A DNA stretch of 64,000 nucleotides, taken from NCBI GenBank assembly GCA_000002435.2, contig CM018793.1. One strand, 5' to 3'. The notes below the pieces were generated by a model. The model was not told the origin of the DNA. It saw only the letters and a program-made list of their open reading frames with translations, and made no database searches. The stretch comes from Giardia intestinalis (taxonomy: Eukaryota). Below, one piece after another: positions 40,208-63,493 of this stretch. Numbering within the stretch: the stretch's first letter is position 1; each line of letters opens with the position of its first letter. The translations under genes were made by a program, and so were the position numbers.

Positions 40208-41347
40208 ATGGATGACGTCCCCTCTGTCTTTCTGCAGTCCAGATTCGGCGCCGTCAGTGCACTAACGTTTGATATATTAAACGACATAGACCCAGACATG
40301 GCTATGGGGCTGTATATCGATACGGCCTGCTTTGCAAGCAGAAAGCTCGTAGCCCAGGCCGGATCGCTCAACAAATTCACGGGACAGCACAAACGGCCGA
40401 TTCTCCTAGGTCCGGACAACTGCTCTCATCCGGTCCAAATCAAATCTAAGAAGCATTTCACTCAGGTACAGTATTCAAGCAGCACCGTGTATGAGTACTT
40501 TAATGCAAAAGAGTTTGTGGGTCTCATCAATGATTTGAAGCCGACATTTTTTGTTCTTCCTAATCCCCTGCCTCTTCCTAAAAGTCTAACAGGAGCCTCG
40601 CCAAAGCCATCCGATATTATTTTACATTGCAATGCATCGACTGACTGGCTTGCTATAGCAGACACTGCAAGGAATGCTCTGATAGCAGTCACCGAGGAGA
40701 CTCTCCGCTACAATGACCCGCTGCCAAAGCCAGAGCTGTACGCGAGCTACCTAGATGTTATCAGCAAATCTAAGGGTCCCTTCTTCCTACCGTATCTATC
40801 CCAGCTTCCTGTCATTCGTGACGTCTGTAAAGCCCGTGGATACCCTACTCGCATCGTTGTAGCTTCTGGAAGCACTCTCGTCTCTCTGCTGACGGCCTTG
40901 CAGTATGAATCTGTCAGTGTCATAACTGATATAGTGTCACTGTACTCTGAACAAGGAATAGCCATCACTGTCCCCTTGGATCTCTTTACTAAACAAGTGG
41001 AGGTACAAGAGGACCGGGAGCCCCTGCGTAAGCATACCATTGGCACGGGTGTGTATCCCTCAGAGACTAAAGAGCATCGAATGCTCACCTATCTAGACTC
41101 CTCCATGTACGCAACAGACCAGGAGCCTCTAGACAAGACGTGCCCGTGTCTGGGATGTAAGCGACCGAAGGCGTACTTACGCCACCTTTATACCACACAC
41201 GAGCTGACAGGATTACTTCTAGTAGCTGCACACAACGTAACGTGGATAAAGCGATTCCTACTTCTTCGGCAGAGGTGCCTCGAGCTGCACGGACCCAGCT
41301 TGCTGAGTGAGTTAGTTCGCAGTATGCTGAGTGCTCTAGCACATTAG
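40208..41347 (+). CDS. Queuine tRNA-ribosyltransferase family protein (TGT fold), probably the non-catalytic accessory subunit QTRT2/QTRTD1
   Basis: The C-terminal TGT zinc motif is CPCLGCKRPKAYLRHLYTTHELTGLLLVAAHNV. Its overall length is about 380 aa. I could not find the catalytic Asp motif of QTRT1, hence the accessory-subunit call. Confidence 0.65.
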   Translation: MDDVPSVFLQSRFGAVSALTFDILNDIDPDMAMGLYIDTACFASRKLVAQAGSLNKFTGQHKRPILLGPDNCSHPVQIKSKKHFTQVQYSSSTVYEYFNAKEFVGLINDLKPTFFVLPNPLPLPKSLTGASPKPSDIILHCNASTDWLAIADTARNALIAVTEETLRYNDPLPKPELYASYLDVISKSKGPFFLPYLSQLPVIRDVCKARGYPTRIVVASGSTLVSLLTALQYESVSVITDIVSLYSEQGIAITVPLDLFTKQVEVQEDREPLRKHTIGTGVYPSETKEHRMLTYLDSSMYATDQEPLDKTCPCLGCKRPKAYLRHLYTTHELTGLLLVAAHNVTWIKRFLLLRQRCLELHGPSLLSELVRSMLSALAH

Positions 41348-44278: not shown

Positions 44279-46240
44279 GTGGACGACTTTTTTCGCGCTA
44301 TTCGTGCCGGAGACTATGAAACAGTCTCCAGGCTTGTACTACAGTATGGAGCTTGCACCGATGCTAACGGACACACTCCCTTGATGTGTGCTATGGCTTC
44401 AAAGCAGGAGGACCTTCTTCCTGTGCTGATTCCGTCGTCATCGGGCATGGCAACCGAGAATGGGGAATACGCCATCACACTGGCTGCTGAACTGGAGTTT
44501 CTTCCTGGAGTTCTCGCTGTACTCCCGTACGAGCATCACTATCGCAACCGAGACGGAGATTCGGCCCTTCACATACTTGCTCGAAAAGGGATTGTCGACA
44601 TCATTCCTCAGTGTGCACAGTACTTGGAGCGAGCAAGGGATGCTACTGGACGTATTCCTATCGACGTTGCAGCAGAGCATAACAGTGTTGCATTTCTCAA
44701 GGCCTCGATAGAGAATAAGCTGGGCTTGACGGCGGACGATGTTTTGCGCACGTTCTGTGCGGCACGACATGCAGGTAGACAAGAGGCCATGGATTGTCTT
44801 CGTGAATACATTTTCGTGGAGCCTGTTGAATGCCTCTGCTATCGTTGTAGCAACGTTCTGGACTTTCCTTCTAATAGTTCCAGCAGGCTAGGGACACCAA
44901 TAGTATCGAGATACAGCTCCATATGTCGCACGCCTTTGTCGTTCAAGTCCATTCGAAGCCTGGGGTCTCTTTCTGCAGAAAGGAGGCCAAGCTTGCGCAG
45001 TCCCTGTCTTTCCCCGCGGCTATCTAATTCAGTGGAGACGACATCCATCGGCATACAGGTTTCTACCGCTTGTCAAAACTGTACTGAAAGTGCACAGATA
45101 TATGAGCAGCAGATTGCTGAGCTAAACGACAGATTGTCAGCCCTGACTGCACAACTAAACACATTTTCTCAAAGATCGCCACAGGTAAGCACGACCCTAC
45201 CTCATTGCACAGAGTCAAATTCTGGTTTTAGTGAAAGGAGACAAAAACAGAGAGACATAGTGGAAGCGGCTGCTCTATCCTTCTCGCCCCTACAAGAAGC
45301 CTCGAAGGCACAAACAAGAGAGCTAATTTCTGTGGTTACGCCAACAGTGAACAGAATCACAGATGACCCGCATCCCAGCGTCCCAAGTAGTCCCTTGCCT
45401 TCTTCCTCTCTATGTTCAAGCCAAGGGTCCAACCCAACAGTCCTCAGATTTTCGGGCTTTCGCGGGATCACCGAACTTGCTCTGTCGAAGGTGGGATCTC
45501 TCAAGAACAGCTCTCCGCATTTAGAGGACATGGGATCCCTGTATGAGGCCCCTGACATGCATACCAATATGACCGACCTTATGCGAGCAGCATGCAGCGG
45601 GAACGTAGGACTTGTGGGAAAGCTTATCGCTACCCAGTCGCGACACCAGACGGAGTCAGGCTACACGGCGCTAATGTTTGCATGCAGAATAGGAAACTTG
45701 GCAGCAGCTAAAATGCTTCTGCCCTACGAAGCAGGGATGCAGACGAAAACAGGATCAACGGCATTGATGGAGGCATGTGCAAGCGGAAGCAAGGAGCTTG
45801 CAACTCTATTGCTCATTGAGGGAGGCATCTATCGTAAGGATGGGTGGTCTGCTCTCATGAGTGCTGCTCGAGCAGGACTTCCCGACATTGTCCGCTGCCT
45901 TCTTCCAGTCGAGAGCGGTAGGGCTACTTTGGGCGGAGTAACCGCCCTTATGAAAGCCGTAGAGCAGGGACACTATTCGTGTATTTCAATGCTCATTCCA
46001 TCGGAAATTCACTTTCGAAGAAAGGATGGGCGAACGGCAATAGACATCGCCCGTGAACTGAATAATACAGGCATAATTGGCCTGTTGGAGGACTACATCA
46101 ACAACCATCCAGTCAGCCTTTCAGATCATCAGACAACAACTGAAAGGGATAGCAACCAGCTGACCAGTAGCGAGATGGAACTCCTTGCAGATATCGATGA
46201 GTATATAATCATGGGTGACGGCGCTTCCGACAAGTGTTAG
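44279..46240 (+). CDS. Ankyrin-repeat protein of the Protein 21.1 type, with an N-terminal ANK block, an S/P-rich linker and a C-terminal ANK block. The start is unresolved.
   Basis: The track ORF 44114..46240 starts with TTG. ANK repeats begin at DDFFRAIRAGDYETVSRLVLQYGACTDANGHTPLM, but the first in-frame ATG is at 44384, inside that repeat. The in-frame GTG at 44279 sits exactly where a start is expected, 17 nt from the divergent zinc-finger ATG. The C-terminal repeats include GYTALMFACRIGN, GSTALMEACASGS, GWSALMSAARAG and GVTALMKAVEQGH. Confidence 0.75.
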   Translation: MDDFFRAIRAGDYETVSRLVLQYGACTDANGHTPLMCAMASKQEDLLPVLIPSSSGMATENGEYAITLAAELEFLPGVLAVLPYEHHYRNRDGDSALHILARKGIVDIIPQCAQYLERARDATGRIPIDVAAEHNSVAFLKASIENKLGLTADDVLRTFCAARHAGRQEAMDCLREYIFVEPVECLCYRCSNVLDFPSNSSSRLGTPIVSRYSSICRTPLSFKSIRSLGSLSAERRPSLRSPCLSPRLSNSVETTSIGIQVSTACQNCTESAQIYEQQIAELNDRLSALTAQLNTFSQRSPQVSTTLPHCTESNSGFSERRQKQRDIVEAAALSFSPLQEASKAQTRELISVVTPTVNRITDDPHPSVPSSPLPSSSLCSSQGSNPTVLRFSGFRGITELALSKVGSLKNSSPHLEDMGSLYEAPDMHTNMTDLMRAACSGNVGLVGKLIATQSRHQTESGYTALMFACRIGNLAAAKMLLPYEAGMQTKTGSTALMEACASGSKELATLLLIEGGIYRKDGWSALMSAARAGLPDIVRCLLPVESGRATLGGVTALMKAVEQGHYSCISMLIPSEIHFRRKDGRTAIDIARELNNTGIIGLLEDYINNHPVSLSDHQTTTERDSNQLTSSEMELLADIDEYIIMGDGASDKC

Positions 46241-49200
46241 GTAAACAAAGGCGGAGGCCCCAACTTAGGAATGTCCTTCAGGGACGTTATGATGCTGTCT
46301 AGCGTCTCATTGGAGAGTGCACACGGCACCGGGGTGATTTCTTTTTCGAGACGCTCTTCATGCTCTCCTCTCATAACGGGGGACGATTCTTTGCTGGCAT
46401 GGTGCTTTTCGATCACCTGCTTGACATCTAAGCTCAGGCTGTCCATGAGGGCTACTAACGTGTTAGTGTCAACGCCAGACATTGCAGAACCGAACTCTAT
46501 GGGACGCGTGATGTTCTCTGAGACCCTGACGTCGGAAGAGCCTTCAATGTGGCTCACATCCTTATTCAGTGTATCAAGCTTACCGAGCTCATGGCTGCTC
46601 TTGGATATCTGAATAATCACCGGGGTCTCAGACCCTTCAGATGCGGAAGAAGCGGACAAATTATCTTTATATGACGACAGTTCTGGTGTAACGCTAGTAT
46701 TCGGAGCCTGCCTTTCTGCCAGGCTGGCCGAAATGCACTCAATAAACGTTGATCGCTTTGACGACGGACTCTTTGCAGCTGGTGGGGGTGGAGGAAGGGC
46801 ATGTTTCTTGATTGTTGCGATAGATTTGGGAATGCCTCCCGGGCCTGAAATCGATGAGGCTCGGTGAGATCTTCTATCTGATAAGTGTGCTTTCGCGTCC
46901 TCAACGGTTGCTTCTTCAACTACGGCATTTGGCGTTGCACACGGAACTGGAGTTGAGCCAACCTCAGAGGTACAGGACGAAGAATCATGCGGTTCTGCAG
47001 AGATTTCTGGGTGTGGTCCACGGTTAGAAATGACATTGGTATTAATAATATCATCCAGCTTAAAGGCATCGTCCTCGTGCTGGTCTTGGATTCCAGCCTT
47101 GACGTCATGCACACTTAAAGCGTGCGGTTGTCTGGTGAAAAATTCATCCTCTGCTGTTTCGTAGGTAGATGCGTTGGATTCTGATTTTGGGACATTCAAT
47201 AGCGTAGAGATCAGCCGACTAGGAACCTGCTGGTGCGATGTAATAAGAGAGGGGCTGTGTTTTTCTGTAATCCTCCCGAACTGGCTGCTTGTCTCACCAC
47301 TAGTCTCAGAAAACCGACTTTGATTCTCGTTCTCTTCATGCAATGCTTTTAGTATCTTGCTTGAGTGTCTATAATGATCGGGATTATCAACGCCAATGTT
47401 GCCTTTAACTTTAGTGGACACATATGTGTCAGAGAACTTCCCTGCAGTGAAAACATCATCCACAAGTGAGGATCGAACAGTAACTCCCTGCTCAGTGCCT
47501 GTTACAGTGGGTACTGCGAAGCTGTAATTGCCGTACTTCCTAAGAAAAGCCCTAACTCTCGGAATATATGCGTTGATTGACAGGTTGCTTTCTGCATTTC
47601 CGAGGATAATGTTTTCGAATTTGACGTTAACTTGTAGATATCTAAGATTATTGTCCATGACGAATCCATACCTAAGTGATTCCTGCAGCATCTCAGTGAA
47701 TGCAACTGTTTGCAACGGAGACAGGTTGATTGCCTCCATGTTAATTTCGTGATCTTGCTCTGTTACCGAGCCTGGCGATGGATGCTGTACTGGCGAGGAA
47801 CAAGAATTGAAACTGGTTAGTGACGTCTCTGCAAGCACACCGGTACCTCGTCGCGGCTGCATAAGTGTAAGCATCAGTGCCACAAGGGCAACAGAGGACA
47901 TACGGGAGACTTCTGCATTTGTTTCTGAGAAGTAGTATGCAGTAAGCTTCCCTTTGTACGGAATCGCAGAAACGGCCTGCTCCCCTTCGGTGTCTTTGGT
48001 GTACACCCCAATGTATCCGTTTTGCTCCGGAAACCGCTCGTAGTCTGTATCAAATGTCGATGTCTCTGGATTGAATAGTATTTTGGAGCCAAGGAGGCCG
48101 AAGAACATGAGGCGTAGCTCGTAAAGACTCTCAAGTACTGACTCACAGATCTTTATTGCCACTTTGCGGTGAATGATGTGGAGGATGCTGTCACTGTCAT
48201 CCTTTGTATTGTCGATAAAACGAAGCGTTCTGTCGTTGTCTTCCCGCGCTTTTAGGGTGGCTTGAATAGCTAATTCTAAGGTGTTGTTCATGTATGACGG
48301 AAACAGCTCGGCAACAAATGCAGAAGAAAACGGAATTGCTCCTGTTTCCGTAAGGTCAGGGGAGTAAAGAATCTCCGGCACACGGACGTTGTAATCGCAC
48401 CTAATCACCTCCAGGATCCAAGCCGTTATGTCTAGTAGGTCGGCGAGCTGAAGCCTGAAGTTAGGAAGGGAGATGCCAAAGTCGGCCTTGAGGGTCTGTA
48501 TTTGTGAAAACTTGGAGGAGACCATGAAAACAGTTGGGTTTTTGGTATGCGCCATCTGCACTTGTTGCATAGCGGTTTTTTCGCAAGTGTTGTGTGCGTA
48601 ACGTAAGCAGTAAGCAGCATTGATGCCAAATCCCTTGTAAGAAAGGGTATCTCTTTTCCCCATAAATACCATGCCAACTCCGTCAGAAAGCTTGTCAGCC
48701 TGCAGCATATGAGAAATAAGCTTGCATTTGATCTTATTCGAATGCAATCTAGATACCTGTGCCAGAGAGGTAGAGGTCGACAGGATACTATAAGATTGTG
48801 AGGTGCACGTCTCACTTTTGGAGTTTGCATACGTGAGGTCAGAGTCCAGAGATCTGGCGATAATCAAGGCGTACCTCAATAAGTCTGTTCCTCGCTTCTG
48901 TGTTCCGGCGAGAGAAGCGTTCTGAGATGCAATCGTGACCAGGCTACTCCCATAACAATCACACAGTTGCATCATGAGAGATGCAAAGTTTATTTCTAGT
49001 GGCACCAAACCGGTTCCAATCATCGGGTCAAAATGCTGTGCAAAGGAGCCTGTTGTTTTCAGAAGGCCTGTGTCTGTGGCCTGTGTGCCGTGCACTCTCT
49101 TTAAGTTGTCTATTTCACGCAATCGTCTGACATCGTTGGCAACATTTACGAGCAGATTGTGGGGAAGGTCCACCAGCTTAGTTGTTTGATTAGTCACATA

Positions 49201-51918
49201 GAAGTCGCAGAAGGAATGAACGGACTTGACGAGAATCTCGTGGGCTAGAAGCGAGTTTAGTTGTTGGATGGTGTCGTCAATGGTGATCCTTAATGTGCTG
49301 TCGCACTGGTCAATCTTATGGAATACCTTAGATAGAGTATTATTGTCCCCGGTAGCCAAGAGGATATAGGGATTACAAAGGATAATAAGAAGAGCGCGAC
49401 AAAAAGTCAGCTTGTCCATGGCACAGAGAGACGTAAAGTCCGTCTGCCCCCTACTCGCCGACGCCATCAGCTCTAAGTCAAGGGCTTCGGACAAATCGAT
49501 TATGTAACGAGAAATTGCGTCTGTAACAGTACTCGCGTTAAGAGGCTCATTAGACCGTATATCGTGAAGCAATAACACGACATGGGTAATCAGAAACTCC
49601 CGTGTATTGCGGCAGAGAAGAGTCACGTTTGGCGAATTGATAGACTGCAAAAGAAGCAGGACGTCTTGACGACGATACAGAGAATAGATTGTGTTGGGCG
49701 CGACGTATGTCTCATACTCTTGCATTAGTTTGTAATGACTATCTTCCGAATACTGGTCAGTAACTTCAAAAAGGCTGACTAGGCAATCGAGAAACGTGAG
49801 GTACGTGCATGCGCTTACTAAGCTTAGCTCCTTGTCAGTAGAGAACAGCTTTAGCGATGCACTGCTTGAGTACAGGGCCAGAAGGTTGGCGTTCATGCGT
49901 GAAGTGCGCTGGCTTTGGGCCAAGGAACTTGAGGCGGCAGCTTTCGTCTTGAATGATGCGGAATGCCCGAGACTCGTCACCGGATCTTCGTGTGCACACT
50001 GTGCTGCATAGAGAGCAGTGGACATAGCATTATAGCCAGAACTAAGCAAGATGATGTCGCTGGAAATTGGTCGCGGAACCGTAGAAGTGCCCTCCGACAG
50101 GGTCCCTGAAAAGCTGGGCTTGATGTCGATGAAAATATACACGTCCCGGAGAAAATCTAGTGAATTGGACATGAAACAATTGGTCAGCTTTGTTAAGATA
50201 ACCTCTTCCAATGGAGCAGCATCAGAAGAAACGTACTCTGCAACAATCTGAAGTAGTGATTGAAAGTTGGAATAGTCTAGAGTGTTTCCAACGGCAATGC
50301 AGAATATGCCAAACGTTGCTGCCGCGTAGACGGGAATGGTCGGGAAATATGTAACTGGTGTTATTATGTTCTGCACCAGGGGAATAAAGAATGTGGCCAT
50401 AAGCGTCTTGCGTCTTCCTGGCAGCCCGGAGCTGGAGGACAGCTTCATGGTCTGTGTGTTAGATGCCTCAAACTGCAGAGCATTGTACTCCAGAAGCGCT
50501 GCATCGATCAGTGTCTGCCTAAAGAACGAGGGGGAATACACTAAAAACAAGAGTATAATGCGCAAGTATGCGCCTACTATTTCATTATAATCATTCATGG
50601 GCATACTGCTGCAAGATTCCAAGCCTGCAGTCTTCGTGTCCAGATAGGAATAGAAGAACGAGGCTAAAGACCGAAACATTCGAACACTGTAAATAACGGA
50701 GAGGTAATCTACGATCGCCTGCTCTTCCTGAACCGAGAAAAGTGGTAGACGGTTTTCGAGAGGGCCATGGCTCTCCAAAATGGAGAATGGCACCCGCGTA
50801 TATGCTTCTATCCGCCTCTCTCCGCAGTGCAGGAAGAATATGCTAAGCAGCCTGACCGTTATAACATCTGGTTGGTAGATGATGGAGCTGTCGCCAGCCA
50901 TTGTACGCGAAGTGTCCGCAGATAGGTGTAGACTGAATGGAGACCGTGTGGATGCAGCAGACAAAAACGCTTTGGTGTCTCTGCCACCCAACAGGTTCGT
51001 CACAAGGTAGTCGTCCATAACTAGTCGGGTAAATATCTTGTCCTGGTGTCGAAGAAGAGCGTTGTATTGGGCCAGCGCCTTATCTACTTGTTCGCCGCTA
51101 TCGAGAATCGCCTTTGCAATGGATTGCTTGAAGGTATGGAGCCGCTCCAATAAATCACTGAGCAATCCCAAGGTTGCTAAACGTGTGCTAGCAGAGCTGG
51201 AAACAGGACACTGTGCAGGAGGAGACAAGACTCTTTCAAACAAAAAGTCAGGCACCTGCGTCGAAAGAAAGAGCAAGAACTCGTCTGTTGAAAAGCTAGT
51301 CGTTGTATAGAGAGCCAAAATCTCTAACATCTCGTTCAGTGCGTCAGGGTTACCGGTGCATGTATGCAAATACGTCGTGAGGAGAGAAGCCGATTCATAC
51401 GTCTCTCTGAATAGGCAAACAATCCCAAAGCGGACCTGAACAAAGTGCCGTAGGAACTGAACTGCGTAGTTTGTCAGCTGGGTACTGCCTGCCCGCGGCT
51501 CAGACATGGCCTTTGCAAGCTCCTCCATGCCACCGAGAGCCACAAAGCTCTTCAAAAGACATGTCTGGACCCTAACATAGGAGGTGCTTTCCCCACTGGA
51601 AATACCCTTAAGGAGCTGTGTCATGGTTCCTAGAGCGAGACATTTGAACCGAACCGTCGTCTCGTTAATGGGCTTTAAATCTATTCTGAAAAGATCCAAC
51701 AAGAGGGCGACCAGCCCAGACGAGATTAGTACATCAAGCCTATCACTTAATGGGATTGCGTTTGAGGCAGCGACAGCGTCTTGCAAAAGAGACTGACAGA
51801 TACTGCTTGAGGTATCGATGAACGCCGTCGAGCTGTACGTCCCCGAGAGGACCTCCTTTACTTGTGCGACAATGATGGGAATGGCCATCTTCCACTTAAT
51901 TATGGGATTTGGCGCCAT
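46237..51918 (-). CDS. Giant all-alpha (HEAT/ARM-like solenoid) hypothetical protein of about 1893 aa
   Basis: The track ORF start at 51960 is TTG, and the first ATG is at 51918 (MAPNPIIKWKMAIPIIV). It has no low-complexity region and is helical throughout. Family unknown. Confidence 0.7.
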   Translation of the reverse strand: MAPNPIIKWKMAIPIIVAQVKEVLSGTYSSTAFIDTSSSICQSLLQDAVAASNAIPLSDRLDVLISSGLVALLLDLFRIDLKPINETTVRFKCLALGTMTQLLKGISSGESTSYVRVQTCLLKSFVALGGMEELAKAMSEPRAGSTQLTNYAVQFLRHFVQVRFGIVCLFRETYESASLLTTYLHTCTGNPDALNEMLEILALYTTTSFSTDEFLLFLSTQVPDFLFERVLSPPAQCPVSSSASTRLATLGLLSDLLERLHTFKQSIAKAILDSGEQVDKALAQYNALLRHQDKIFTRLVMDDYLVTNLLGGRDTKAFLSAASTRSPFSLHLSADTSRTMAGDSSIIYQPDVITVRLLSIFFLHCGERRIEAYTRVPFSILESHGPLENRLPLFSVQEEQAIVDYLSVIYSVRMFRSLASFFYSYLDTKTAGLESCSSMPMNDYNEIVGAYLRIILLFLVYSPSFFRQTLIDAALLEYNALQFEASNTQTMKLSSSSGLPGRRKTLMATFFIPLVQNIITPVTYFPTIPVYAAATFGIFCIAVGNTLDYSNFQSLLQIVAEYVSSDAAPLEEVILTKLTNCFMSNSLDFLRDVYIFIDIKPSFSGTLSEGTSTVPRPISSDIILLSSGYNAMSTALYAAQCAHEDPVTSLGHSASFKTKAAASSSLAQSQRTSRMNANLLALYSSSASLKLFSTDKELSLVSACTYLTFLDCLVSLFEVTDQYSEDSHYKLMQEYETYVAPNTIYSLYRRQDVLLLLQSINSPNVTLLCRNTREFLITHVVLLLHDIRSNEPLNASTVTDAISRYIIDLSEALDLELMASASRGQTDFTSLCAMDKLTFCRALLIILCNPYILLATGDNNTLSKVFHKIDQCDSTLRITIDDTIQQLNSLLAHEILVKSVHSFCDFYVTNQTTKLVDLPHNLLVNVANDVRRLREIDNLKRVHGTQATDTGLLKTTGSFAQHFDPMIGTGLVPLEINFASLMMQLCDCYGSSLVTIASQNASLAGTQKRGTDLLRYALIIARSLDSDLTYANSKSETCTSQSYSILSTSTSLAQVSRLHSNKIKCKLISHMLQADKLSDGVGMVFMGKRDTLSYKGFGINAAYCLRYAHNTCEKTAMQQVQMAHTKNPTVFMVSSKFSQIQTLKADFGISLPNFRLQLADLLDITAWILEVIRCDYNVRVPEILYSPDLTETGAIPFSSAFVAELFPSYMNNTLELAIQATLKAREDNDRTLRFIDNTKDDSDSILHIIHRKVAIKICESVLESLYELRLMFFGLLGSKILFNPETSTFDTDYERFPEQNGYIGVYTKDTEGEQAVSAIPYKGKLTAYYFSETNAEVSRMSSVALVALMLTLMQPRRGTGVLAETSLTSFNSCSSPVQHPSPGSVTEQDHEINMEAINLSPLQTVAFTEMLQESLRYGFVMDNNLRYLQVNVKFENIILGNAESNLSINAYIPRVRAFLRKYGNYSFAVPTVTGTEQGVTVRSSLVDDVFTAGKFSDTYVSTKVKGNIGVDNPDHYRHSSKILKALHEENENQSRFSETSGETSSQFGRITEKHSPSLITSHQQVPSRLISTLLNVPKSESNASTYETAEDEFFTRQPHALSVHDVKAGIQDQHEDDAFKLDDIINTNVISNRGPHPEISAEPHDSSSCTSEVGSTPVPCATPNAVVEEATVEDAKAHLSDRRSHRASSISGPGGIPKSIATIKKHALPPPPPAAKSPSSKRSTFIECISASLAERQAPNTSVTPELSSYKDNLSASSASEGSETPVIIQISKSSHELGKLDTLNKDVSHIEGSSDVRVSENITRPIEFGSAMSGVDTNTLVALMDSLSLDVKQVIEKHHASKESSPVMRGEHEERLEKEITPVPCALSNETLDSIITSLKDIPKLGPPPLFT

Positions 51919-52454: not shown

Positions 52455-54494
52455 TTAACCCAATCTATTTTCAATTAGCGCCCAGAGCGTCTTCATCTGT
52501 ACATGCACAGCCGCAGAATCTATACTGGATAGCTGAATAGAGAAAATATTATCGCCTTTGTAGTAGGGCGGAGCTGCTTCTTCTCCTTTCATATGAAAGT
52601 ACACCCCCAGAGATTTAGACAGGACATACGCCAACTTATCTTCGTTGGGCTTGTTGATGCGAACACGATTAAATTGAGAAGATTGCTTTTCCAAAACCAC
52701 GCAAAGAACGGCACCGCTCTCCCACTCCTGCTCAGTAACTTTTCCCACGTCGGATGTAAAGACCAAAGTTCGGGCTTTGTACGACAAAACGATATCGTCC
52801 GCAGCGAAGGACAACTTGTCCTTGCTGATGCTGAAATTCGTTGCCCCCGCTTCCTTGTCCTTGGCCTTCTGATGAACGTAGCTGTATTGGGGACGGCGGT
52901 AGTCCTTAACTTTCTCAAGACGGTTCAACGGTTTAAACTCTCCTCCTACGAATAGATAAAGTATGTTCCGTTCATTGACGACGCAGCTGCTGTAGGCAGA
53001 CGGTATTAAGATGTATCGTGGGCTGCTCTTTGATATTCGCTGTTGGAGGCTTTGGTTTACCTCTGCCCTTCGCTCGGAAGGTTCCACTTGAGAGTCGGGA
53101 GATCTGTGATAAAGACCTGATAGCACTTGCCTGAGCGTACTATCCGCGACAATCGGAATGTTATTTCGGATGAATGGAGCGACAAACTTTGCATAGTGAA
53201 GCGAGTTGGCAGAAATAAAGGTCACTGGCCGTTGTATTTTCGCTGCAACAACCCTGATGGTGTCGGCGGGATCCTTACGCGCGGTGATAGTGCAGTACTT
53301 ACTAAATGTACGTAGGACTTTGGACAAGTACGCTGTCGGAACAAGAGACGCGTAGAGAGAGGAGAGATACACGGTGCTACAGAACAGCGATGGCTTGTAT
53401 GTGTTCATACTTCGTGCGATGTCGTGAATAGTGTTCAGGATCCGTGACCCGCGCGCCGAAAAAAAGTCTTTACTGACAACAAATGTTGAGCGATGTATAA
53501 AGCTGGTTATCTGAGCCTTTTCAACCTCTAAAGTCTTAGGAAGAACCTTCACATTGGATGTGACTCTGGACGAAAGCACAGAAAGACGCCCAGAGTAAAT
53601 CAATTTCTGGTCTGGGCCGTCTGTTTCTGTGGTTAGTTGTGGGTTACTGGCAACTCGCTGGTCGAGCTCGCTGTACTTTTTGATTGAAGAGATTGCTTGG
53701 TCAAGAGAGAAGCCAGAGGGGCCACTGGCATGCTCTTCGGAGGTCTTTGGAGACATAGCTGTGGGAGCAGCTGACCTGTCTGCTAAAAAGGGAGTCAGAA
53801 AGTCCAAGTGTTTGGAAGCATGCTCGATCGCCGAGTCCACCTCAGTGAGAAAGCTGGCTCCGTGTGAGTAGTACGAAAGATATTCTTGGTTGTCTTTCTT
53901 ATCGTCCGCCTCCCGCGATGCAAGGAATTCGTGCAGTGCGCTGTAGTAGGAGCTGACGTCGCGCCGCCTGTCGTATTCGTGGACATCGAAAAACGCACCT
54001 TTGTTAGAGTCCTGAGTCAGTTTTATTATGAGAGGAATGCCTCCGCTTTTGAGTAGATCGGGGACTGCGCTGATGTTGACGTCAGTGATGAGACGCACGC
54101 TGGAGGGGTGGATAATGTCTGAAGAGTCTGCATCAGAATAGATGGCGGCATAGAGCCCCAGTATGCTCTTCCGGTCAAACACAGTTGTGTGGGCTTCGCT
54201 GGCGAGCGCCGCGTACTTCGGCCGGATGCGTCGAACGAAGAGGTTCTCGGCGACAACCGGCTCTCCGTTGGCAAGGATGAGCTGCTGCTGGGTTGCGACC
54301 ATGACGCAGAGGTCTGCGACCGTCATGGGAACGCCCTGGAGCGTGATCTCGTCGTGGGCGGGGAGGAGGGAGCCACCGGCGTAGACGTAGCGCTGCTGGG
54401 AGGCCTCGTCGTCGACAAGGCACCAGGCGCAGGCCGGGTCCCGGGTCTGCTGGAGGCCGGTGAGCGCCGCGCGGGCTGCAGCGAGCAGGGCCAT
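52455..54494 (-). CDS. Hypothetical protein of 679 aa, with its 5' end (about 350 nt) in the GC-rich island
   Basis: ATG start at 54494 (MALLAAARAALTGLQQ). The N-terminus is Ala-rich and the rest has ordinary composition. No family recognised. Confidence 0.6.
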   Translation of the reverse strand: MALLAAARAALTGLQQTRDPACAWCLVDDEASQQRYVYAGGSLLPAHDEITLQGVPMTVADLCVMVATQQQLILANGEPVVAENLFVRRIRPKYAALASEAHTTVFDRKSILGLYAAIYSDADSSDIIHPSSVRLITDVNISAVPDLLKSGGIPLIIKLTQDSNKGAFFDVHEYDRRRDVSSYYSALHEFLASREADDKKDNQEYLSYYSHGASFLTEVDSAIEHASKHLDFLTPFLADRSAAPTAMSPKTSEEHASGPSGFSLDQAISSIKKYSELDQRVASNPQLTTETDGPDQKLIYSGRLSVLSSRVTSNVKVLPKTLEVEKAQITSFIHRSTFVVSKDFFSARGSRILNTIHDIARSMNTYKPSLFCSTVYLSSLYASLVPTAYLSKVLRTFSKYCTITARKDPADTIRVVAAKIQRPVTFISANSLHYAKFVAPFIRNNIPIVADSTLRQVLSGLYHRSPDSQVEPSERRAEVNQSLQQRISKSSPRYILIPSAYSSCVVNERNILYLFVGGEFKPLNRLEKVKDYRRPQYSYVHQKAKDKEAGATNFSISKDKLSFAADDIVLSYKARTLVFTSDVGKVTEQEWESGAVLCVVLEKQSSQFNRVRINKPNEDKLAYVLSKSLGVYFHMKGEEAAPPYYKGDNIFSIQLSSIDSAAVHVQMKTLWALIENRLG

Positions 54495-54557
54495 TTTGCA
54501 GGGCCAAAGAGGAAGACACCCCTCCCCTGCGTGTCTGTGGGTCTGACGGCCGTTGTC

Positions 54558-54630
54558 GCCGCTTTAGCTCAGTTGGTAGAGCGTTGGACTTTTAATCCAA
54601 CGGTCGCGGGTTCGAGCCCCGTAGGCGGTG
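54558..54630 (+). tRNA. tRNA-Lys (anticodon UUU), 73 nt, no encoded CCA
   Basis: Cloverleaf read directly from the sequence. The acceptor stem is GCCGCTT/AGGCGGT with G.U pairs. The D-arm is GCTC-AGTTGGTA-GAGC. The anticodon arm is TTGGA-CTTTTAA-TCCAA, with TTT at positions 34-36. The variable loop is CGGTC. The T-arm is GCGGG-TTCGAGC-CCCGT and the discriminator is G. A-box TAGCTCAGTTGG and B-box GGTTCGAGCCC pol III elements are present. Confidence 0.85.
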
Positions 54631-54635
54631 TTTAC

Positions 54636-55100
54636 TCACGCGTACGTCGCAAGGAGCGCGGCGGCCTGGTCGGACTTGTAGCGGAACGTCGGGGGGAGGC
54701 GCCTCGCCTGGCGGTAGTAGCGCGCGAGGCGGTGGATCCTCGACTCGACCAGGATCAGGCGGAACTTCGAGTCCTTGTCGCGGCGGCTGCGCTCGAGGTG
54801 CTTGCGGATGGCGACCGCCTTCTTGATCATGCAGTAGAGGTCCTCGGGGATTTCGGGCGCAAGGCCCTTCGCTTTCAGGATGCGGACGATCTTCGACCCC
54901 GTGACGTTCTTGACCTGGCCGATCGCAAACTGGTCGCGGAGGATAAGCCCGATCCTCGAGGGGGGCGTGCCCTTCTTGGCGAGCTTGCAGATCTGCTCGC
55001 AGACGTCCTCCGGCGTGTACTTGTTCCAGGGCGCAGGAGCGCGAGTGTATGGTATGGCAGAGCGGGATATACCCTTACCCTTCGAGTGCATGCGGCCCAT
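54636..55100 (-). CDS. RPS13: 40S ribosomal protein S13 (uS15)
   Basis: [18 protein letters not shown]...[40 protein letters not shown] aligns over its full length with eukaryotic S13. Codon usage is strongly GC3-biased. The TGA stop is fused to the AGTAAAC poly(A) signal. Confidence 0.93.
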
Positions 55101-55186
55101 GGCTTTGTCACGTGCCCGCTAAAATTGCTATGCAAAGTGAATTTAAAGTCGCGGAGTTTTTTTACAGGCAGGCAGCCCGCGGCCCT
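55101..55186. promoter_or_regulatory. Divergent promoter spacer between RPS13 and MCTS1, containing AAAATTGCTATGCAAAG and TTTAAAGTC AT-rich elements
   Basis: An 86-bp head-to-head spacer between two highly GC3-biased genes. Confidence 0.3.
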
Positions 55187-55762
55187 ATGGAGCGATTTGC
55201 GCGCGAGTGGTGCACGAACCTCTCCCTCCTCAAGGCGTCCCAGGCGAAGAAGTGCGTGGCCGGCCTCAAGGAGCAATTCCCCGGCGCAGAAGCCCTCATC
55301 GACGAGCTCTTTCCGCCCAAGGGAGAGGTCTCCCTGGTCAAGTGCAAGAACTACATACAGCTCCTAGTCAGCACGCTCCCCGCTGGCAGCGCCCACAACA
55401 CAGGGACCAAGCCCGTGAAGCGGATCGTATTCTGGAACATCCGCGACGGCCCGTGGATCCCGACCCTGCGTCTCCTGCAACGATACCCGACCCTGCTCCC
55501 CGTGCTACTAACCGACGCGTCGTGCCCCAAGTTCATACTCCAGGGCGCTCAGATGATGGCCCCTGGCATCCACCAGATGGACCAGGATCTCCCTCGGGGT
55601 GCGATTGTCTCTGTGAGCATCCAGGGTGCCCCGCCGTTCTACATCGGCCGTCTCACTCAGGCCGGTAAGGAGATAATGGCCGAGGGTCGCCACGAGCAGG
55701 CCGTGGAGACTCTCAACATAATTGGCGATGGGTTCTGGGAGTACGGCGACGACTATAAGTAA
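55187..55762 (+). CDS. MCTS1/Tma20-like translation re-initiation factor with a PUA domain
   Basis: The track ORF start at 55049 is ATG, and the in-frame ATGs at 55130 and 55187 are chosen by alignment. The 55187 start (MERFAREW...) gives 191 aa, comparable to human MCTS1 at 181 aa. It aligns with human MCTS1 at EQFPG, PTLRLLQRYPTLLP, KFILQGAQMMAPGI, AEGRHEQAVETL and DGFWEY. An alternative start is 55130. Confidence 0.8.
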   Translation: MERFAREWCTNLSLLKASQAKKCVAGLKEQFPGAEALIDELFPPKGEVSLVKCKNYIQLLVSTLPAGSAHNTGTKPVKRIVFWNIRDGPWIPTLRLLQRYPTLLPVLLTDASCPKFILQGAQMMAPGIHQMDQDLPRGAIVSVSIQGAPPFYIGRLTQAGKEIMAEGRHEQAVETLNIIGDGFWEYGDDYK

Positions 55763-55850
55763 ATCGGAGTTGCCGTGCGTGCGCCGCCCGTCTGTGCGAG
55801 AGCTGCGCTGATAATAATTTTGAAACGTTTTCCTGTTTTCCGCAAAACAA

Positions 55851-60525: not shown

Positions 60526-62007
60526 TTACAATAGAGGAAGAAGCTCATTCATGCCCATTTTCTCAGCTGCAGCGCGTGGAGATATTCTATCGACCTTTAT
60601 GTCCTTTTCATGCGAAGCCATGAGCCTGGCAAACTCCAAATTTCTGTTTTCTATCGCATAGAGCAAAGCAGTGAATCCAGAGAGTGACCTCATTCTCTTC
60701 TCGTCATCGAGGAGGATCCTTCCTGCTTCCACGTTGTTAGTAACGGCTGCAATCATCAGGGCTGTCATGCCGTCCAAGCGTTGCTTTCGCTTATGGCTAT
60801 CAATGTGGCGCTTCACGCCGTCTATGTCGTTGTCTTTTACTGCGTCTATGAGAGGCGTGGTACTTTTGAGGATTATATCGTTGAGATCGCCGGCCGAAAG
60901 GGGCTTTAACGCAGCATTGGACACGTCTAGGCTTACAGGATCAATCTTGACGTCCTGAATATCCAGAGGAACAGGTACTGCTTTTGCACAATTATCTTGA
61001 CTGTCTCCTACGCGGCCCTCAGCAGCATCGCCTAATTTTGAAAAGTCGTGCAAGCCAAAAAGGTTGATGGTGATCGCGTTGGCAGCAATGGATGGGCTGT
61101 CCACAATCCTGATGTGACCATATCTCCCCTCTTCGGCCCACTTCTTTGTTATGCTCTGAACCTCCGGGGACTTGATGATGTCGGATGCAGAGGGTCGATC
61201 GTCAGGGTGGTACTTTATCATGGCTGAAATGATCCTGACAAACTCAGTGCTGTATCCAGGTATTGACAGCTGCGACGACGACACTTTCCTCGCCCTCTCG
61301 AGACGATCTCTGTCTGTGGGGCCTGTGATGAGATACTTTTGCGCAGCCAATTCGTACATGGTGCACCCAAGGGACCAAATGTCGAAGGATGTGGTGTATG
61401 TTCTAGACTCAAAAGATTCTGGGGGCATGTATATGGGCGTCCCGACAATCGTCATTGCCATATGCTCCTGAGCATTCTCATAAAGGCGGCAGACGCCAAA
61501 GTCTGCAAGCTTCACCTGCATGTCATCCCCGATGAGCAGATTTGCAGGCTTGATATCGCGGTGAATGACGGCCTTCCCCGTCGCATTAAATGGAGAGTGA
61601 CAGTAACTCAGCGCCAAGAGCACTTGGATCATGATTGCCCAAAGAAGATCCTCGTCGATTTTCTTTCCATGCTTCTTATGATCTGTCAGAAATTTGAGCA
61701 TGTCGCCGTTCTTGTAATAGTCCATGATGATTGAGTAGCTGTTTTCATCCACATCATCGAACACTTCATAGTACTTCACAATATTCGGGTGGTCGAGCTT
61801 CATCGTAATATCGATTTCGTTGGTGACTAGCTCCTTTGCTTTCGAGCTGAGACAGGAGTACATGATCTTCTTACAGCAGAGAAGCTTATCCTTTTGCGCA
61901 GATGTCACGGCATACACCTTTCCATAGCTGCCTGTCCCAACAACGCGATCTATGGTGTATTTGTCGGTGACTGACCCCTTTTGAATAAACACCGGCTCCT
62001 CTGTCAT
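60526..62007 (-). CDS. NEK-family Ser/Thr protein kinase with C-terminal ankyrin repeats
   Basis: The kinase motifs are GTGSYGKVY, LCCKKI, HRDIKPANLLI, LADFG and GTPIYMPPE. The C-terminal ANK repeats are GMTALMIAAVTNNVEAGRILL and GFTALLYAIENRNLEFARLM. ATG start at 62007. Confidence 0.9.
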   Translation of the reverse strand: MTEEPVFIQKGSVTDKYTIDRVVGTGSYGKVYAVTSAQKDKLLCCKKIMYSCLSSKAKELVTNEIDITMKLDHPNIVKYYEVFDDVDENSYSIIMDYYKNGDMLKFLTDHKKHGKKIDEDLLWAIMIQVLLALSYCHSPFNATGKAVIHRDIKPANLLIGDDMQVKLADFGVCRLYENAQEHMAMTIVGTPIYMPPESFESRTYTTSFDIWSLGCTMYELAAQKYLITGPTDRDRLERARKVSSSQLSIPGYSTEFVRIISAMIKYHPDDRPSASDIIKSPEVQSITKKWAEEGRYGHIRIVDSPSIAANAITINLFGLHDFSKLGDAAEGRVGDSQDNCAKAVPVPLDIQDVKIDPVSLDVSNAALKPLSAGDLNDIILKSTTPLIDAVKDNDIDGVKRHIDSHKRKQRLDGMTALMIAAVTNNVEAGRILLDDEKRMRSLSGFTALLYAIENRNLEFARLMASHEKDIKVDRISPRAAAEKMGMNELLPLL

Positions 62008-62050: not shown

Positions 62051-63493
62051 TTACAGGCTCCGAACAGCAGAAAGGCCCCGGTTGGAAGAAACGGGGGGCA
62101 GCTGGTCTGCCGTCAGAATACCTCTTTCTAGAAGCATCGGCGCGAGCCTCTGCAGTCTTCCCCGAATCTGCACATCTGTCCGGTTCGGCATGAGGGCACT
62201 TATGGCCTTCCAGTTCCGCGAGGGGCAGACCTTGACGGCAGCGATGAGCTGCATGTCCTCCTCAGCCGGCCAGTTTCCCTTTGTGATCTTAGGGTCGATC
62301 GTTCTCAGCCATCGCTGATTGCATTGGTCGGCAGTGCGTCGCGGAAGGTTATGTCCGTTTATGTATATGAAGTCTGCGATTTTTCGCCAGTTCTTCGCCT
62401 TAAACATACCCACGGCGATCTCGAGCAGTTGGTCTTCTTCTTTAGACCAAGTAGCTGTTTCCTTATGGCTGCGAGAGCAGGGCTGGCGCGCCACTGCCGA
62501 CAGGGACGGTGCAGAGGCTCGCGTGGCAGGAATGCAGGGCTCTTGCTTCATGGGAATTGTACTAGGTGTGTGTAGACTCTTTTGTATAGCCGACCCCGGG
62601 GGGATCCCAGAGATGCCCGATAGCTTGTGGGTTGGTCGATCGACTGTAACGGGAAGGAGGGATATGGGAACGCGATCTAGCGGTGCCTGGGATGTGGTTA
62701 TCTGGGCAGGGTAAGGCAGGCCTGCATGGGCCAAGGCGAAGATGGGAATGGGGGGCACCGGAGGAACCAGGATTGCAGAGTTGATGGCAGCCACATCAGC
62801 CTTAGAAAGTAGCTGTGCAGAATCACACGGAACCTTGATATTCTCCAACTCCGAAGCAATGGGAGAAGAATCAAAGGAGATCTGCGAGGGGAAGGCAGTA
62901 GAATCAGAAGAGGCACACGACCCCAGCCCGGGGTGTGTGGAGACAACGAACGCCGTGCTATCGAGGCTGTGATCGCTGAGCTGGATCGTCGAACTAGATG
63001 CGCCCACCTCGTACTCTGAAGAAGCATAGTCGGTCCCGTTGGGAGTAGACGTCTGAGTCTGGCTGGAGACGGCAATTGCCTCCACCATTCTCTTGGATGT
63101 GTAGCACGTGGTAAAGAGGGATCTATATATCTCTAAAAGTCGTATGTCTAGTGATGAAGCTGCAGAGGGACAGGTAAATTGCTTAGAAGGCTCACTACCC
63201 GCCTCACCAGCATTGCTGCTACTGCCAGCAGATGGCGCTGACATCGCTGATAACTGCGCGTGAAACGAGTTGGTGATTGCGTAGAGGAGCTCCTGAACGA
63301 GAAGATAAAGGGCTTTGAGGCCCTTGACTCGCCATTTGTCTGTCTCTGCGTCTATCAAAAAGGGTGTCTGCAGAAATCTATCCATTGGACACGGGAGCTC
63401 TGCTGTACCGCCTAAATTTTGCGTATTGTTGTTTGTGGCCCTAGTACTGCATCCAGCGGTAGAGACCGCCCCGTCCAGCCTGGTGTTAGACAT
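62051..63493 (-). CDS. Myb/SANT-domain DNA-binding protein with two C-terminal Myb repeats
   Basis: The first repeat is WSKEEDQLLEIAVGMFKAKNWRKIADFI...CNQRWLRTIDP. The second is WPAEEDMQLIAAVKVCPSRNWKAISALMPNRTDVQIRGRLQRL. The N-terminal 330 aa are S/T/P-rich and look like a transactivation region. Confidence 0.8.
   Translation of the reverse strand: MSNTRLDGAVSTAGCSTRATNNNTQNLGGTAELPCPMDRFLQTPFLIDAETDKWRVKGLKALYLLVQELLYAITNSFHAQLSAMSAPSAGSSSNAGEAGSEPSKQFTCPSAASSLDIRLLEIYRSLFTTCYTSKRMVEAIAVSSQTQTSTPNGTDYASSEYEVGASSSTIQLSDHSLDSTAFVVSTHPGLGSCASSDSTAFPSQISFDSSPIASELENIKVPCDSAQLLSKADVAAINSAILVPPVPPIPIFALAHAGLPYPAQITTSQAPLDRVPISLLPVTVDRPTHKLSGISGIPPGSAIQKSLHTPSTIPMKQEPCIPATRASAPSLSAVARQPCSRSHKETATWSKEEDQLLEIAVGMFKAKNWRKIADFIYINGHNLPRRTADQCNQRWLRTIDPKITKGNWPAEEDMQLIAAVKVCPSRNWKAISALMPNRTDVQIRGRLQRLAPMLLERGILTADQLPPVSSNRGLSAVRSL

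Follow-up and report, generated by a model that had tools for sequence, protein, structure and literature searches.

The 3' end of RPS13 mRNA overlaps an antisense tRNA-Lys(UUU) gene by 8 bp in Giardia intestinalis assemblage A, probably as a tolerated by-product of genome streamlining

The 64-kb window, which is the whole stretch of Giardia intestinalis DNA analyzed here (64,000 nucleotides), contains an antisense tRNA-Lys(UUU) gene that occupies part of the 141 bp separating RPS13 from a Cdc73-like gene, two pol II genes on one strand. The features of the locus are as follows.
52455-54494, minus strand: Cdc73-like gene, 679 aa (Pfam CDC73_C, 1.8e-15, 57.4 bits against a cut-off of 32.8)
54495-54557: 63-bp spacer between the Cdc73-like ATG and the tRNA 5' end, in which only AAAATG is conserved
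54558-54630, plus strand: tRNA-Lys(UUU) gene, 73 nt, without an intron and without an encoded CCA (Rfam and ARAGORN)
54565-54576, plus strand: A-box-like element TAGCTCAGTTGG, tRNA positions 8-19, putative, from a sequence match
54591-54593, plus strand: anticodon TTT, in the 7-nt loop CTTTTAA (CUUUUAA)
54609-54619, plus strand: B-box-like element GGTTCGAGCCC, likewise putative, from a sequence match
54623-54630, both strands: 8-bp segment common to the mature RPS13 mRNA (minus) and the acceptor 3' strand of the tRNA with its discriminator (plus), tRNA positions 66-73
54623-54635, minus strand: RPS13 3' UTR GUAAACACCGCCU, 13 nt by the tabulated length, with the poly(A) site at about 54623
54629-54633, plus strand: TGTTT, the sole T-rich element after the tRNA and a candidate weak pol III terminator
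54636-54631, minus strand: hexamer AGTAAA, the poly(A) signal, which shares its first A with the end of the stop codon TGA
54636-55100, minus strand: RPS13/uS15 CDS (GL50803_16652), 154 aa, stop codon TGA at 54638-54636
55157-55163, plus strand: T7 run, the first run of at least four Ts downstream of the tRNA, 527 nt away

The RPS13 ORF carries the Pfam domains Ribosomal_S13_N (6e-27) and Ribosomal_S15 (5e-13), and its product is 100% identical to the G. intestinalis WB protein XP_001707558.1. The identifier GL50803_16652 was taken from Table S1 of Franzén 2013, and a full-text literature search for it found no paper. The start of the Cdc73-like gene lies on the same strand, 141 bp downstream of the RPS13 stop, and the CDC73_C domain is the C-terminal domain of a Paf1-complex subunit family. 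Recomputation gave gaps of 5 nt between the tRNA gene and the RPS13 stop (54631-54635) and 63 nt between the tRNA gene and the Cdc73-like ATG (54495-54557), exactly as in the preliminary description, whose coordinates all proved correct. The 63-bp spacer must house both the upstream region of the tRNA gene and the promoter of the Cdc73-like gene.

The Rfam tRNA model RF00005 matched 54558-54630 on the plus strand with 70.7 bits (gathering score, 29; E = 2e-13) over model positions 1 to 71 of 71, and ARAGORN called a tRNA-Lys with the anticodon TTT at 54557-54631. ARAGORN extends the gene by one base at either end, which is explained by possible pairing of C54557 with G54630; the 73-nt Rfam boundaries are favored by U8/A9 and the D-stem GCUC/GAGC. 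Two programs therefore support the 73-nt plus-strand tRNA-Lys(UUU) that had been proposed, and both find it to be the only tRNA gene in the window. About 64 other tRNA genes are present in G. intestinalis. The acceptor stem is topped by a G1-U72 wobble pair, and the discriminator G73 at 54630 is followed by TTT, not CCA. The A-box consensus is TRGCNNAGTGG and the B-box consensus is GGTTCGANTCC, and by sequence match only, the two elements of the tRNA-Lys gene together show one deviation from these textbook forms. The minimum-free-energy fold found the acceptor and anticodon stems and did not reproduce the T-arm (z = -2.4); the structure was judged by the covariance model in place of the thermodynamic fold. 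The exact tRNA-Lys sequence had no match when JGI metagenome contigs were scanned for it. Judged from its sequence, the locus is a functional nuclear tRNA-Lys(UUU) gene of G. intestinalis assemblage A.

On the minus strand, the junction between the RPS13 stop and the tRNA 3' end reads TGAGTAAAC. The stop TGA followed by GTAAAC yields AGTAAAC at 54636-54630, the final base of which is the complement of the discriminator G73. The preliminary description held that an AGTRAAY signal is fused to the stop codon and that its last base is the discriminator position. The fusion stands, whereas contact with the discriminator holds for the optional seventh base and not for the core: the experimentally defined Giardia signal is the hexamer AGURAA (PMC9014877), and the hexamer at 54636-54631 falls 1 nt short of the tRNA. 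The heptamer AGTRAAY is not enriched across the window, with 37 matches against 30.2 +/- 5.8 expected, and the motif count alone was dropped as evidence. Its position relative to stops is informative, with a match from -2 to +24 nt of the stop in 5 of 31 long ORFs, against about 0.27 expected from the window-wide density. No further AGTRAA was found on the RPS13 strand in the 640 nt examined (54001-54640). The RPS13 stop is not a dual-use stop in the sense of Bilodeau 2022 (NAG-UAA or NAG-UGA), since the codon before it is GCG and the overlap, UGA followed by GUAAA, amounts to one base. The neighboring PUA gene has the canonical AG-TAA form at 55758-55764.

According to the poly(A)-tag data tabulated in Franzén 2013 (Table S1), the mapped 3' UTR of RPS13 is 13 nt long in WB, AS175, and P15 and 12 nt long in GS; these lengths are supplementary-table values and were not re-derived from reads. 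They were converted to window positions by counting from the base after the stop, and if the stop were included in the count, the end would lie at 54626, still inside the tRNA gene. With a 13-nt UTR, the RPS13 mRNA of assemblages A and E would end near 54623, which is tRNA position 66, and since the next templated base (54622) is an A, the true cleavage could sit one base further. The published UTR length thus agrees with the earlier prediction that the RPS13 mRNA 3' end falls within, or antisense to, the tRNA gene, and places it 8 nt inside. What overlaps the tRNA gene is the cleavage site together with the final 8 nt of the 3' UTR. By the same tabulated length, the first A of AGUAAA and the cleavage site are 14 nt apart, within the modal AGURAA-to-cleavage distance of 13 to 15 nt reported by Bilodeau 2022, who found auxiliary elements to be absent (PMC9014877). 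RPS13 is represented by 618 and 522 polyadenylated nanopore reads in the data of Bilodeau 2022, and the FPKM values in Table S1 of Franzén 2013 are 1520 and 2813 in assemblage A, 735 in E, and 1328 in B. These tabulated values are within the range of the ribosomal-protein genes S15, L18a, S4, S9, and L13, bear no relation to whether the overlap is present, and are not lower in the overlapping lineages, and the 3' UTRs of ribosomal-protein genes listed there are typically 9 to 26 nt long. Transcriptional interference or coupling, raised as a possibility in the preliminary description, is a hypothesis only.

The junction had also been called an extreme example of genome compaction. The compaction is real, but "extreme" holds only in a relative sense, as two convergent protein-gene pairs in the window have stop-codon bases in common (CTAG at 38072-38075 and TTAG at 46237-46240) and overlapping transcripts were reported for 81% of WB tail-to-tail gene pairs (Franzén 2013, PMC3610916). 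Gaps between convergent ORFs in the window are 536, 119, 24, -4, 275, -4, and 66 nt, and the intergenic median in G. intestinalis is 81 bp. The RPS13/tRNA-Lys overlap, though neat, is what the known compaction of the Giardia genome leads one to expect.

The locus was compared in seven sequences that represent five lineages of G. duodenalis (A, B, E, X1, and X2), for which the assemblage B and E proteins and the variant P0124 were reached via protein-cluster members. For runs ERR3333378-83, assignment to the dog assemblages C and D is conjectural; PRJEB32663 comprises six samples, and run numbers are not given in its paper. The order RPS13, antisense tRNA, Cdc73-like gene is kept in all sampled lineages, which is compatible with a function such as insulation and equally with simple synteny. 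The stop codon followed by GTAAAC is invariant in all seven sequences, with the stop itself alternating between TGA and TAA. The distance from the stop to the tRNA varies: it is 5 nt in A and E only, 21 nt in B, 19 nt in X1, and 36 nt in X2. The tRNA 3' trailers are TTTAC in A and E, GTCTTTCG in B, GCTTTTG in X1, and GCCTTTTTG in X2, and the longer spacers contain a T-run, which is T3 in B and T4 and T5 in X1 and X2. By the tabulated UTR length, the assemblage B RPS13 mRNA ends before reaching the tRNA. The tRNA-Lys sequence is identical at all 73 positions among A, B, E, and X1 and at 72 of 73 in X2; across the seven sequences, 72 of its 73 columns do not vary, whereas the neighboring spacer has 8 such columns in 65, and outside assemblage A the identity of the 63-bp flanking spacer is only 23 to 43 of 64. 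This pattern indicates purifying selection on the tRNA-Lys sequence relative to its flanks. The neighbor-joining tree built from the Cdc73-like gene pairs A with E, which are 87% identical, compared with identities of 68 to 76% to the others. The RPS13/antisense tRNA arrangement is absent from G. muris and a second Giardia species, and these two therefore cannot polarize the indel; its direction, a deletion in A/E versus insertions elsewhere, rests on the unrooted tree and the expected need for a T-run. The lineage comparison, an alignment-level result confining the 5-nt gap to A and E, is what is new here.

No run of at least four Ts occurs on the tRNA strand from 54631 to 55156, and a conventional oligo(T) terminator, taken as at least four Ts shortly after the tRNA 3' end, is thus lacking in assemblage A. 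The T7 run at 55157-55163 lies past the RPS13 ATG, in the divergent promoter region of RPS13 and the PUA gene. The TTT at 54631-54633 pairs with the AAA of the RPS13 poly(A) signal on the other strand. Human pol III is partially terminated by TVT3 elements and hardly at all by an isolated T3 (PMC3141230). A literature search on Giardia pol III terminators and tRNA 3' trailers found no paper describing them. In A and E, pol III probably terminates with some leakage at T72-G73-TTT, where the poly(A) signal, read on the opposite strand, provides the TTT, and tRNase Z would trim a longer read-through transcript.

The best explanation, to which we assign a probability of about 80%, is that a functional tRNA gene coexists with RPS13 cleavage 13 nt past the stop and that the overlap is a tolerated by-product of streamlining rather than a regulatory device. 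With cleavage at this position, the RPS13 mRNA ends in 8 nt that derive from the antisense strand of the tRNA acceptor stem. From established knowledge, two properties would make this tolerable: 3'-end formation in Giardia appears to need only an upstream hexamer and a fixed spacing of about 14 nt, no downstream element being known, and tRNA promoters are internal to the gene. As to origin, the comparison suggests that the sister assemblages A and E most likely lost a spacer of about 16 bp, which in the other lineages bears the T-run; with the cleavage distance unchanged after this loss, the poly(A) site would have shifted into the tRNA gene.

An alternative, which we regard as unlikely, is that pol III in A/E passes the T3 and runs about 530 nt antisense through RPS13 to the T7 run, giving a long trailer or antisense RNA that would collide head-on with RPS13 transcription or form double-stranded RNA with the RPS13 mRNA. 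The lack of any run of at least four Ts up to 55156 and the near inactivity of an isolated T3 for the human enzyme (PMC3141230) are in line with such read-through, as are the abundant antisense transcripts reported in Giardia (PMC1885649). However, the element after the tRNA is TGTTT and not an isolated T3, and TVT3 terminates partially in the human system (PMC3141230). Assemblage B likewise has TCTTT alone, so short T-runs may suffice in Giardia, and RPS13 expression is normal in the published tables.

Less probable still is a regulatory role in which the pol III complex, with TFIIIC on the B box and TFIIIB upstream, acts as a roadblock or insulator against pol II moving past RPS13. Termination would then be enforced a few bases from the poly(A) site, and the promoter of the weakly expressed Cdc73-like gene, 141 bp downstream, would be shielded. 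The geometry and the comparative data lend this idea some support: pol II, having passed the RPS13 cleavage site, would reach the B-box-like element after 3 to 4 bp, and the gene order persists in five lineages despite almost complete divergence of the spacers. The yeast TFIIIB footprint lies 10 to 40 bp upstream of the start site, which is itself about 13 bp upstream of the mature 5' end, and by analogy these distances would put TFIIIB at about 54505-54535, against the start of the Cdc73-like gene. Precedents exist in yeast, where roughly half of the tRNA genes act through TFIIIB and TFIIIC as roadblocks to pol II, with read-through seen at none (PMC5052057), and in mouse, where a pol III-occupied antisense MIR interferes with Polr3e (PMC5358760). 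Nevertheless, a block this near would stall pol II before the cleavage site emerges, and yet RPS13 mRNA is abundant and correctly polyadenylated in the published data, which also list no systematic difference in RPS13 expression between lineages with 5-nt and 21-nt gaps. Moreover, RPS13 has no adjoining tRNA in G. muris and another Giardia species, where it is nevertheless expressed, and yeast shows no pol II peak on approach from the tRNA 3' side (PMC5052057). If pol II and pol III occupancy were mutually exclusive, as a roadblock would entail, tRNA-Lys output could be coupled to ribosomal-protein transcription; tRNA-Lys(UUU) production at this single locus would then be tied to that of a ribosomal protein, and the Cdc73-like promoter would be protected.

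The most elaborate proposal concerns the 9 bp at 54630-54638 (GTTTACTCA), which in A and E would serve at once as discriminator, sole pol III T-run, poly(A) signal, and RPS13 stop, with the tRNA complex acting as terminator or insulator and pol II and pol III use being coupled; taken as a whole, it is rather improbable, marginally more so than the roadblock by itself. A pseudogene or relic with the true RPS13 3' end elsewhere, which would make the overlap biologically empty, can be set aside along with a distal poly(A) site as effectively refuted: the missing canonical terminator of at least four Ts, the G1-U72 wobble atop the acceptor stem, and the absence of a T-arm from the minimum-free-energy fold are outweighed by the covariance score of 70.7 bits with a full cloverleaf, intact A and B boxes, invariance at 72 of 73 positions between lineages whose flanks are conserved at only about 35-45%, and RPS13 3' ends mapped, in the published table, to 13 nt in three isolates with the 5-nt junction.

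Read as a tolerated by-product of streamlining, the RPS13/tRNA-Lys locus leaves the current understanding of Giardia gene expression unchanged. In the tabulated data, the RPS13 poly(A) site lies 12 to 13 nt from the stop whether spacer (B) or tRNA gene (A and E) follows, and this constant position supports an upstream hexamer and a fixed distance as the sole requirements for 3'-end formation in Giardia. The probable loss, in assemblages A and E, of the trailer carrying the T-run of an essential-looking tRNA gene makes the locus suitable for asking how many Ts Giardia pol III requires; it is also suited to asking whether head-on pol II/pol III traffic matters in so compact a genome. Such cases may escape annotation and 3'-end pipelines in which any poly(A) site that overlaps the next gene is discarded.

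Several known systems can be compared with this locus. In trypanosomatids, tRNA genes are found in the convergent strand-switch regions that mark the ends of pol II units, and the RPS13 locus likewise lies at a pol II stop. Unlike at the RPS13 locus, trypanosomatid units are polycistronic, polyadenylation is coupled to trans-splicing and proceeds without a hexamer, and the distances are hundreds of base pairs.

The closest relatives are found in Giardia itself. The AGUAAA of RPS13, 14 nt from the cleavage site, corresponds to the Giardia AGURAA signal with its mode of 13 to 15 nt (Bilodeau 2022, PMC9014877; Peattie 1989 and Que 1996 are cited there). The reuse of stop codon bases in the signal follows the same principle as the stop/signal sharing of Bilodeau 2022, although in the latter the form is (N)AG-UAA or (N)AG-UGA, with the stop supplying hexamer bases 3 to 5, whereas only the last A of UGA/UAA is common to both at RPS13. 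The word "tRNA" occurs 0 times in PMC9014877. In convergent Giardia transcripts (PMC3610916), as at RPS13/tRNA-Lys, the end of one transcript lies inside the neighboring gene, and in G. muris 9.5% of genes overlap a neighbor (Xu 2020, PMC7641422). The overlaps in these two studies are between protein-coding pol II genes, whereas the partner of RPS13 is a pol III gene with its promoter internal to the overlapped unit.

Outside Giardia, the tRNA roadblocks of yeast (Roy 2016, PMC5052057; Korde 2014, PMC4228148) are similar in that a tRNA gene stands in the path of pol II and upstream of a pol II promoter, next to a highly transcribed neighbor, as at the RPS13 locus. They differ in that yeast pol II meets TFIIIB from the tRNA 5' side and termination involves Nrd1-Nab3-Sen1 (NNS), whereas the RPS13 locus is approached from the 3' side and uses a cleavage/polyadenylation signal. 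The MIR of mouse Polr3e (Yeganeh 2017, PMC5358760) is also a head-on pol III unit within a region transcribed by pol II, but it is intronic and far from the 3' end, whereas the RPS13 locus has an 8-bp overlap at the poly(A) site. The human noncanonical terminators (Orioli 2011, PMC3141230) share the lack of a nearby run of at least four Ts and the degenerate TVT3 form, a class that includes TGTTT of A/E and TCTTT of B. Those results concern the human enzyme, in vitro and in cells, whereas the Giardia T3 is additionally constrained by the poly(A) signal on the opposite strand.

The window derives from Giardia intestinalis (duodenalis/lamblia) assemblage A and has a G+C content of 49.4%. The genes and intervals at the locus are as follows:

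52455-54494, minus strand: 679-aa ORF with a Cdc73 C-terminal domain (Pfam CDC73_C, 57 bits)
54558-54630, plus strand: tRNA-Lys(UUU)
54636-55100, minus strand: RPS13/uS15 (Pfam S13_N and S15)
55101-55186: 86-bp divergent promoter region common to RPS13 and the Pre-PUA/PUA gene
55187-55762, plus strand: Pre-PUA/PUA gene (MCT-1/Tma20-like)

The RPS13 protein is 100% identical to XP_001707558.1 of isolate WB and has exact matches in many Giardia assemblies, such as GCA_000498715.1. The tRNA gene matched the Rfam tRNA model over its full length (70.7 bits) and was called at the same locus by ARAGORN, bearing out the 73-nt plus-strand tRNA-Lys(UUU) of the preliminary description, all of whose figures are correct, including the gaps of 63 nt to the Cdc73-like ATG and 5 nt to the RPS13 stop. 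It is the sole tRNA and the sole Rfam match within the 64-kb window. ARAGORN placed its ends one base wider on each side (54557 and 54631; 75 nt), owing to a possible pair between C(-1) and the discriminator, G73; this is probably a program artefact rather than an 8-bp acceptor stem. C(-1) is conserved across lineages except in GS (L014, assemblage B), where the base is T. After G73, A/E have T and the other lineages have G.

On the minus strand, the RPS13 stop reads TGA GTAAAC. The poly(A) signal is fused to the stop as proposed, and the heptamer AGTAAAC (54636-54630) ends on the tRNA discriminator; the experimentally defined signal is the hexamer AGURAA (PMC9014877), which ends 1 nt before the tRNA. 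Stops fused with the signal occur in about 15% of Giardia genes (PMC9014877). The heptamer AGTRAAY is not enriched across the window (37 matches versus 30 expected) but clusters just past stops, lying -2 to +24 nt from the stop in 5 of 31 long ORFs versus ~0.27 expected by our own arithmetic. Near variants (TGTAAAC, TGTAAAT, GGTAAAC, TGTGAAT, and AGTAAAG) lie close to the stops of many ORFs lacking a strict match, such as 60526-62007(-), 62051-63493(-), 44384-46240(+), 34905-38075(+), and 40208-41347(+), and the first hexamer position may, from these sequences, be less strict than the consensus suggests.

Published mapping places the RPS13 mRNA end inside the tRNA gene in A and E. For this gene (GL50803_16652, "Ribosomal protein S13", CH991767:732673-733137), Table S1 of Franzén et al. 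(2013) gives 3' UTRs of 13 nt in WB and AS175 (assemblage A), 13 nt in P15 (E), and 12 nt in GS (PMC3610916), and polyadenylated nanopore reads number 618 and 522 (Bilodeau et al. 2022, PMC9014877). Converted from the published length, the stop plus 13 nt falls at 54623, tRNA position 66, so the mature mRNA and the tRNA gene share 8 bp. This site is 14 nt from the first A of AGUAAA, within the 13-15 nt mode of Bilodeau et al. (2022). No second AGTRAA was found on the RPS13 strand within 54001-54640. The mapped UTRs and this single signal thus support the inference drawn earlier from the confirmed juxtaposition. In B, the 12-nt UTR stops 9 nt short of the tRNA, and only A and E therefore have the mature-mRNA/tRNA overlap. 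Across lineages, cleavage keeps its distance of 12 to 13 nt, consistent with a measuring mechanism that is blind to the sequence downstream.

The locus was compared among assemblage A isolates (L001-L009), P15 (L018), three assemblage B genomes and one assemblage-B-like metagenome contig (L014-L017), and two further G. duodenalis lineages, X1 and X2 (L019-L022, from runs ERR3333378-83), which may be the dog assemblages C and D. All of the G. duodenalis loci keep one gene order, running from the PUA gene through RPS13 and the antisense tRNA-Lys(UUU) to the Cdc73-like gene. The stop followed by GTAAAC is invariant in 7 sequences from 5 lineages, the stop itself being TGA or TAA. The tRNA is identical at 73/73 positions in A, B, E, and X1 and at 72/73 in X2, whereas the adjoining 63-bp spacer retains 8 of 65 alignment columns, a difference that indicates strong purifying selection on the tRNA gene. 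Neither G. muris (L010) nor a further Giardia species (L011-L013) has the tRNA, and RPS13 has different neighbors in both; relative to these two, the stop-fused signal and the tRNA neighbor are specific to G. duodenalis. In G. muris (region L010 3463-3535), RPS13 follows L35Ae and precedes an unrelated 517-aa gene; its stop is unfused, and AGTAAAG lies 47 nt past it, about 12 nt ahead of the next ATG. In the other species (L011 3463-3490), the next ORF begins 22 nt past the RPS13 stop.

Gap between the RPS13 stop and the tRNA, and tRNA-sense 3' trailer, by lineage
A, E: 5 nt; TTTACTCA
B: 21 nt; GTCTTTCG...
X1: 19 nt; GCTTTTG... (T4)
X2: 36 nt; GCCTTTTTG... (T5)

In the Cdc73-like gene tree, A and E group as sisters. 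The simplest account, whose direction we infer because the tree is unrooted, is that their common ancestor lost about 16 bp, and with it the trailer and its T-run. The only T-run after the tRNA in A/E is TTT (54631-54633), the complement of AAA in AGUAAA, and the next run of at least four Ts is T7 at 55157-55163, 527 nt away and beyond the RPS13 ATG. Human pol III terminates hardly at all at an isolated T3 but partially at TVT3 elements (PMC3141230). In A/E, T72-G73-TTT forms TGTTT; assemblage B carries TCTTT. Termination at TGTTT in A/E is predicted to be leaky, with read-through transcripts open to rescue by tRNase Z.

The 679-aa protein looks, from its domain content, like a Giardia Paf1-complex Cdc73/parafibromin homolog, with a long, poorly conserved N-terminal part. 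The nucleotide identity of its gene is 87% when A is compared with E, and 68-76% in comparisons with the other lineages. In BAH15c1 (assemblage B, L016 3595-5664), it is annotated as 689 aa, with 10 additional codons and a start 35 nt from the tRNA; this start is likely an annotation artefact, since its ATG is not conserved elsewhere. The divergent promoter region carries AATTTAAA and the T7 run. Public calls for the PUA gene vary (191, 210, 237, or 238 aa); in the two longest, the gene would extend 52 nt into the 5' end of RPS13, and the conserved Pfam match begins downstream of the M at 55187. The gene ends in a canonical dual-use AG-TAA-AT signal (55758-55764).

The B box (54609-54619) begins 3-4 bp beyond the RPS13 cleavage site, and TFIIIB, if yeast distances apply to Giardia, would sit at about 54505-54535, beside the start of the Cdc73-like gene. 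Most of the 141-bp interval would thus be taken up by a pol III complex, making pol II/pol III contact plausible by geometry. That the tRNA gene acts as a functional roadblock or insulator for pol II is nevertheless unlikely. In yeast, tRNA genes strongly block pol II (PMC5052057), and mouse Polr3e is subject to interference from an antisense pol III unit (PMC5358760), but RPS13 expression in WB (FPKM 1520) is as high as that of other ribosomal protein genes (S15, 1601; L18a, 1513; S4, 1833; L13, 1718; L9, 1243), which disfavors strong interference, and its level across isolates (AS175, 2813; P15, 735; GS, 1328) bears no relation to the presence of the overlap (PMC3610916).

Tight packing is normal in G. 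intestinalis, which has a median intergenic size of 81 bp and 65 tRNA genes. Convergent ORF gaps within the window are 536, 119, 24, -4, 275, -4, and 66 nt. Two protein-gene pairs share stop-codon bases, 34905-38075(+) with 38072-40138(-) (CTAG, 38072-38075) and 44384-46240(+) with 46237-51918(-) (TTAG, 46237-46240), so the whole 3' UTR of each mRNA must be antisense to its partner's coding sequence; these pairs are packed tighter than the tRNA/RPS13 junction. Our literature search turned up no paper that mentions a Giardia mRNA whose 3' end runs into a tRNA gene, and the overlap and its A/E-specific origin appear unreported. The type of arrangement is already known, with transcripts overlapping in 81% of tail-to-tail pairs in WB (PMC3610916).
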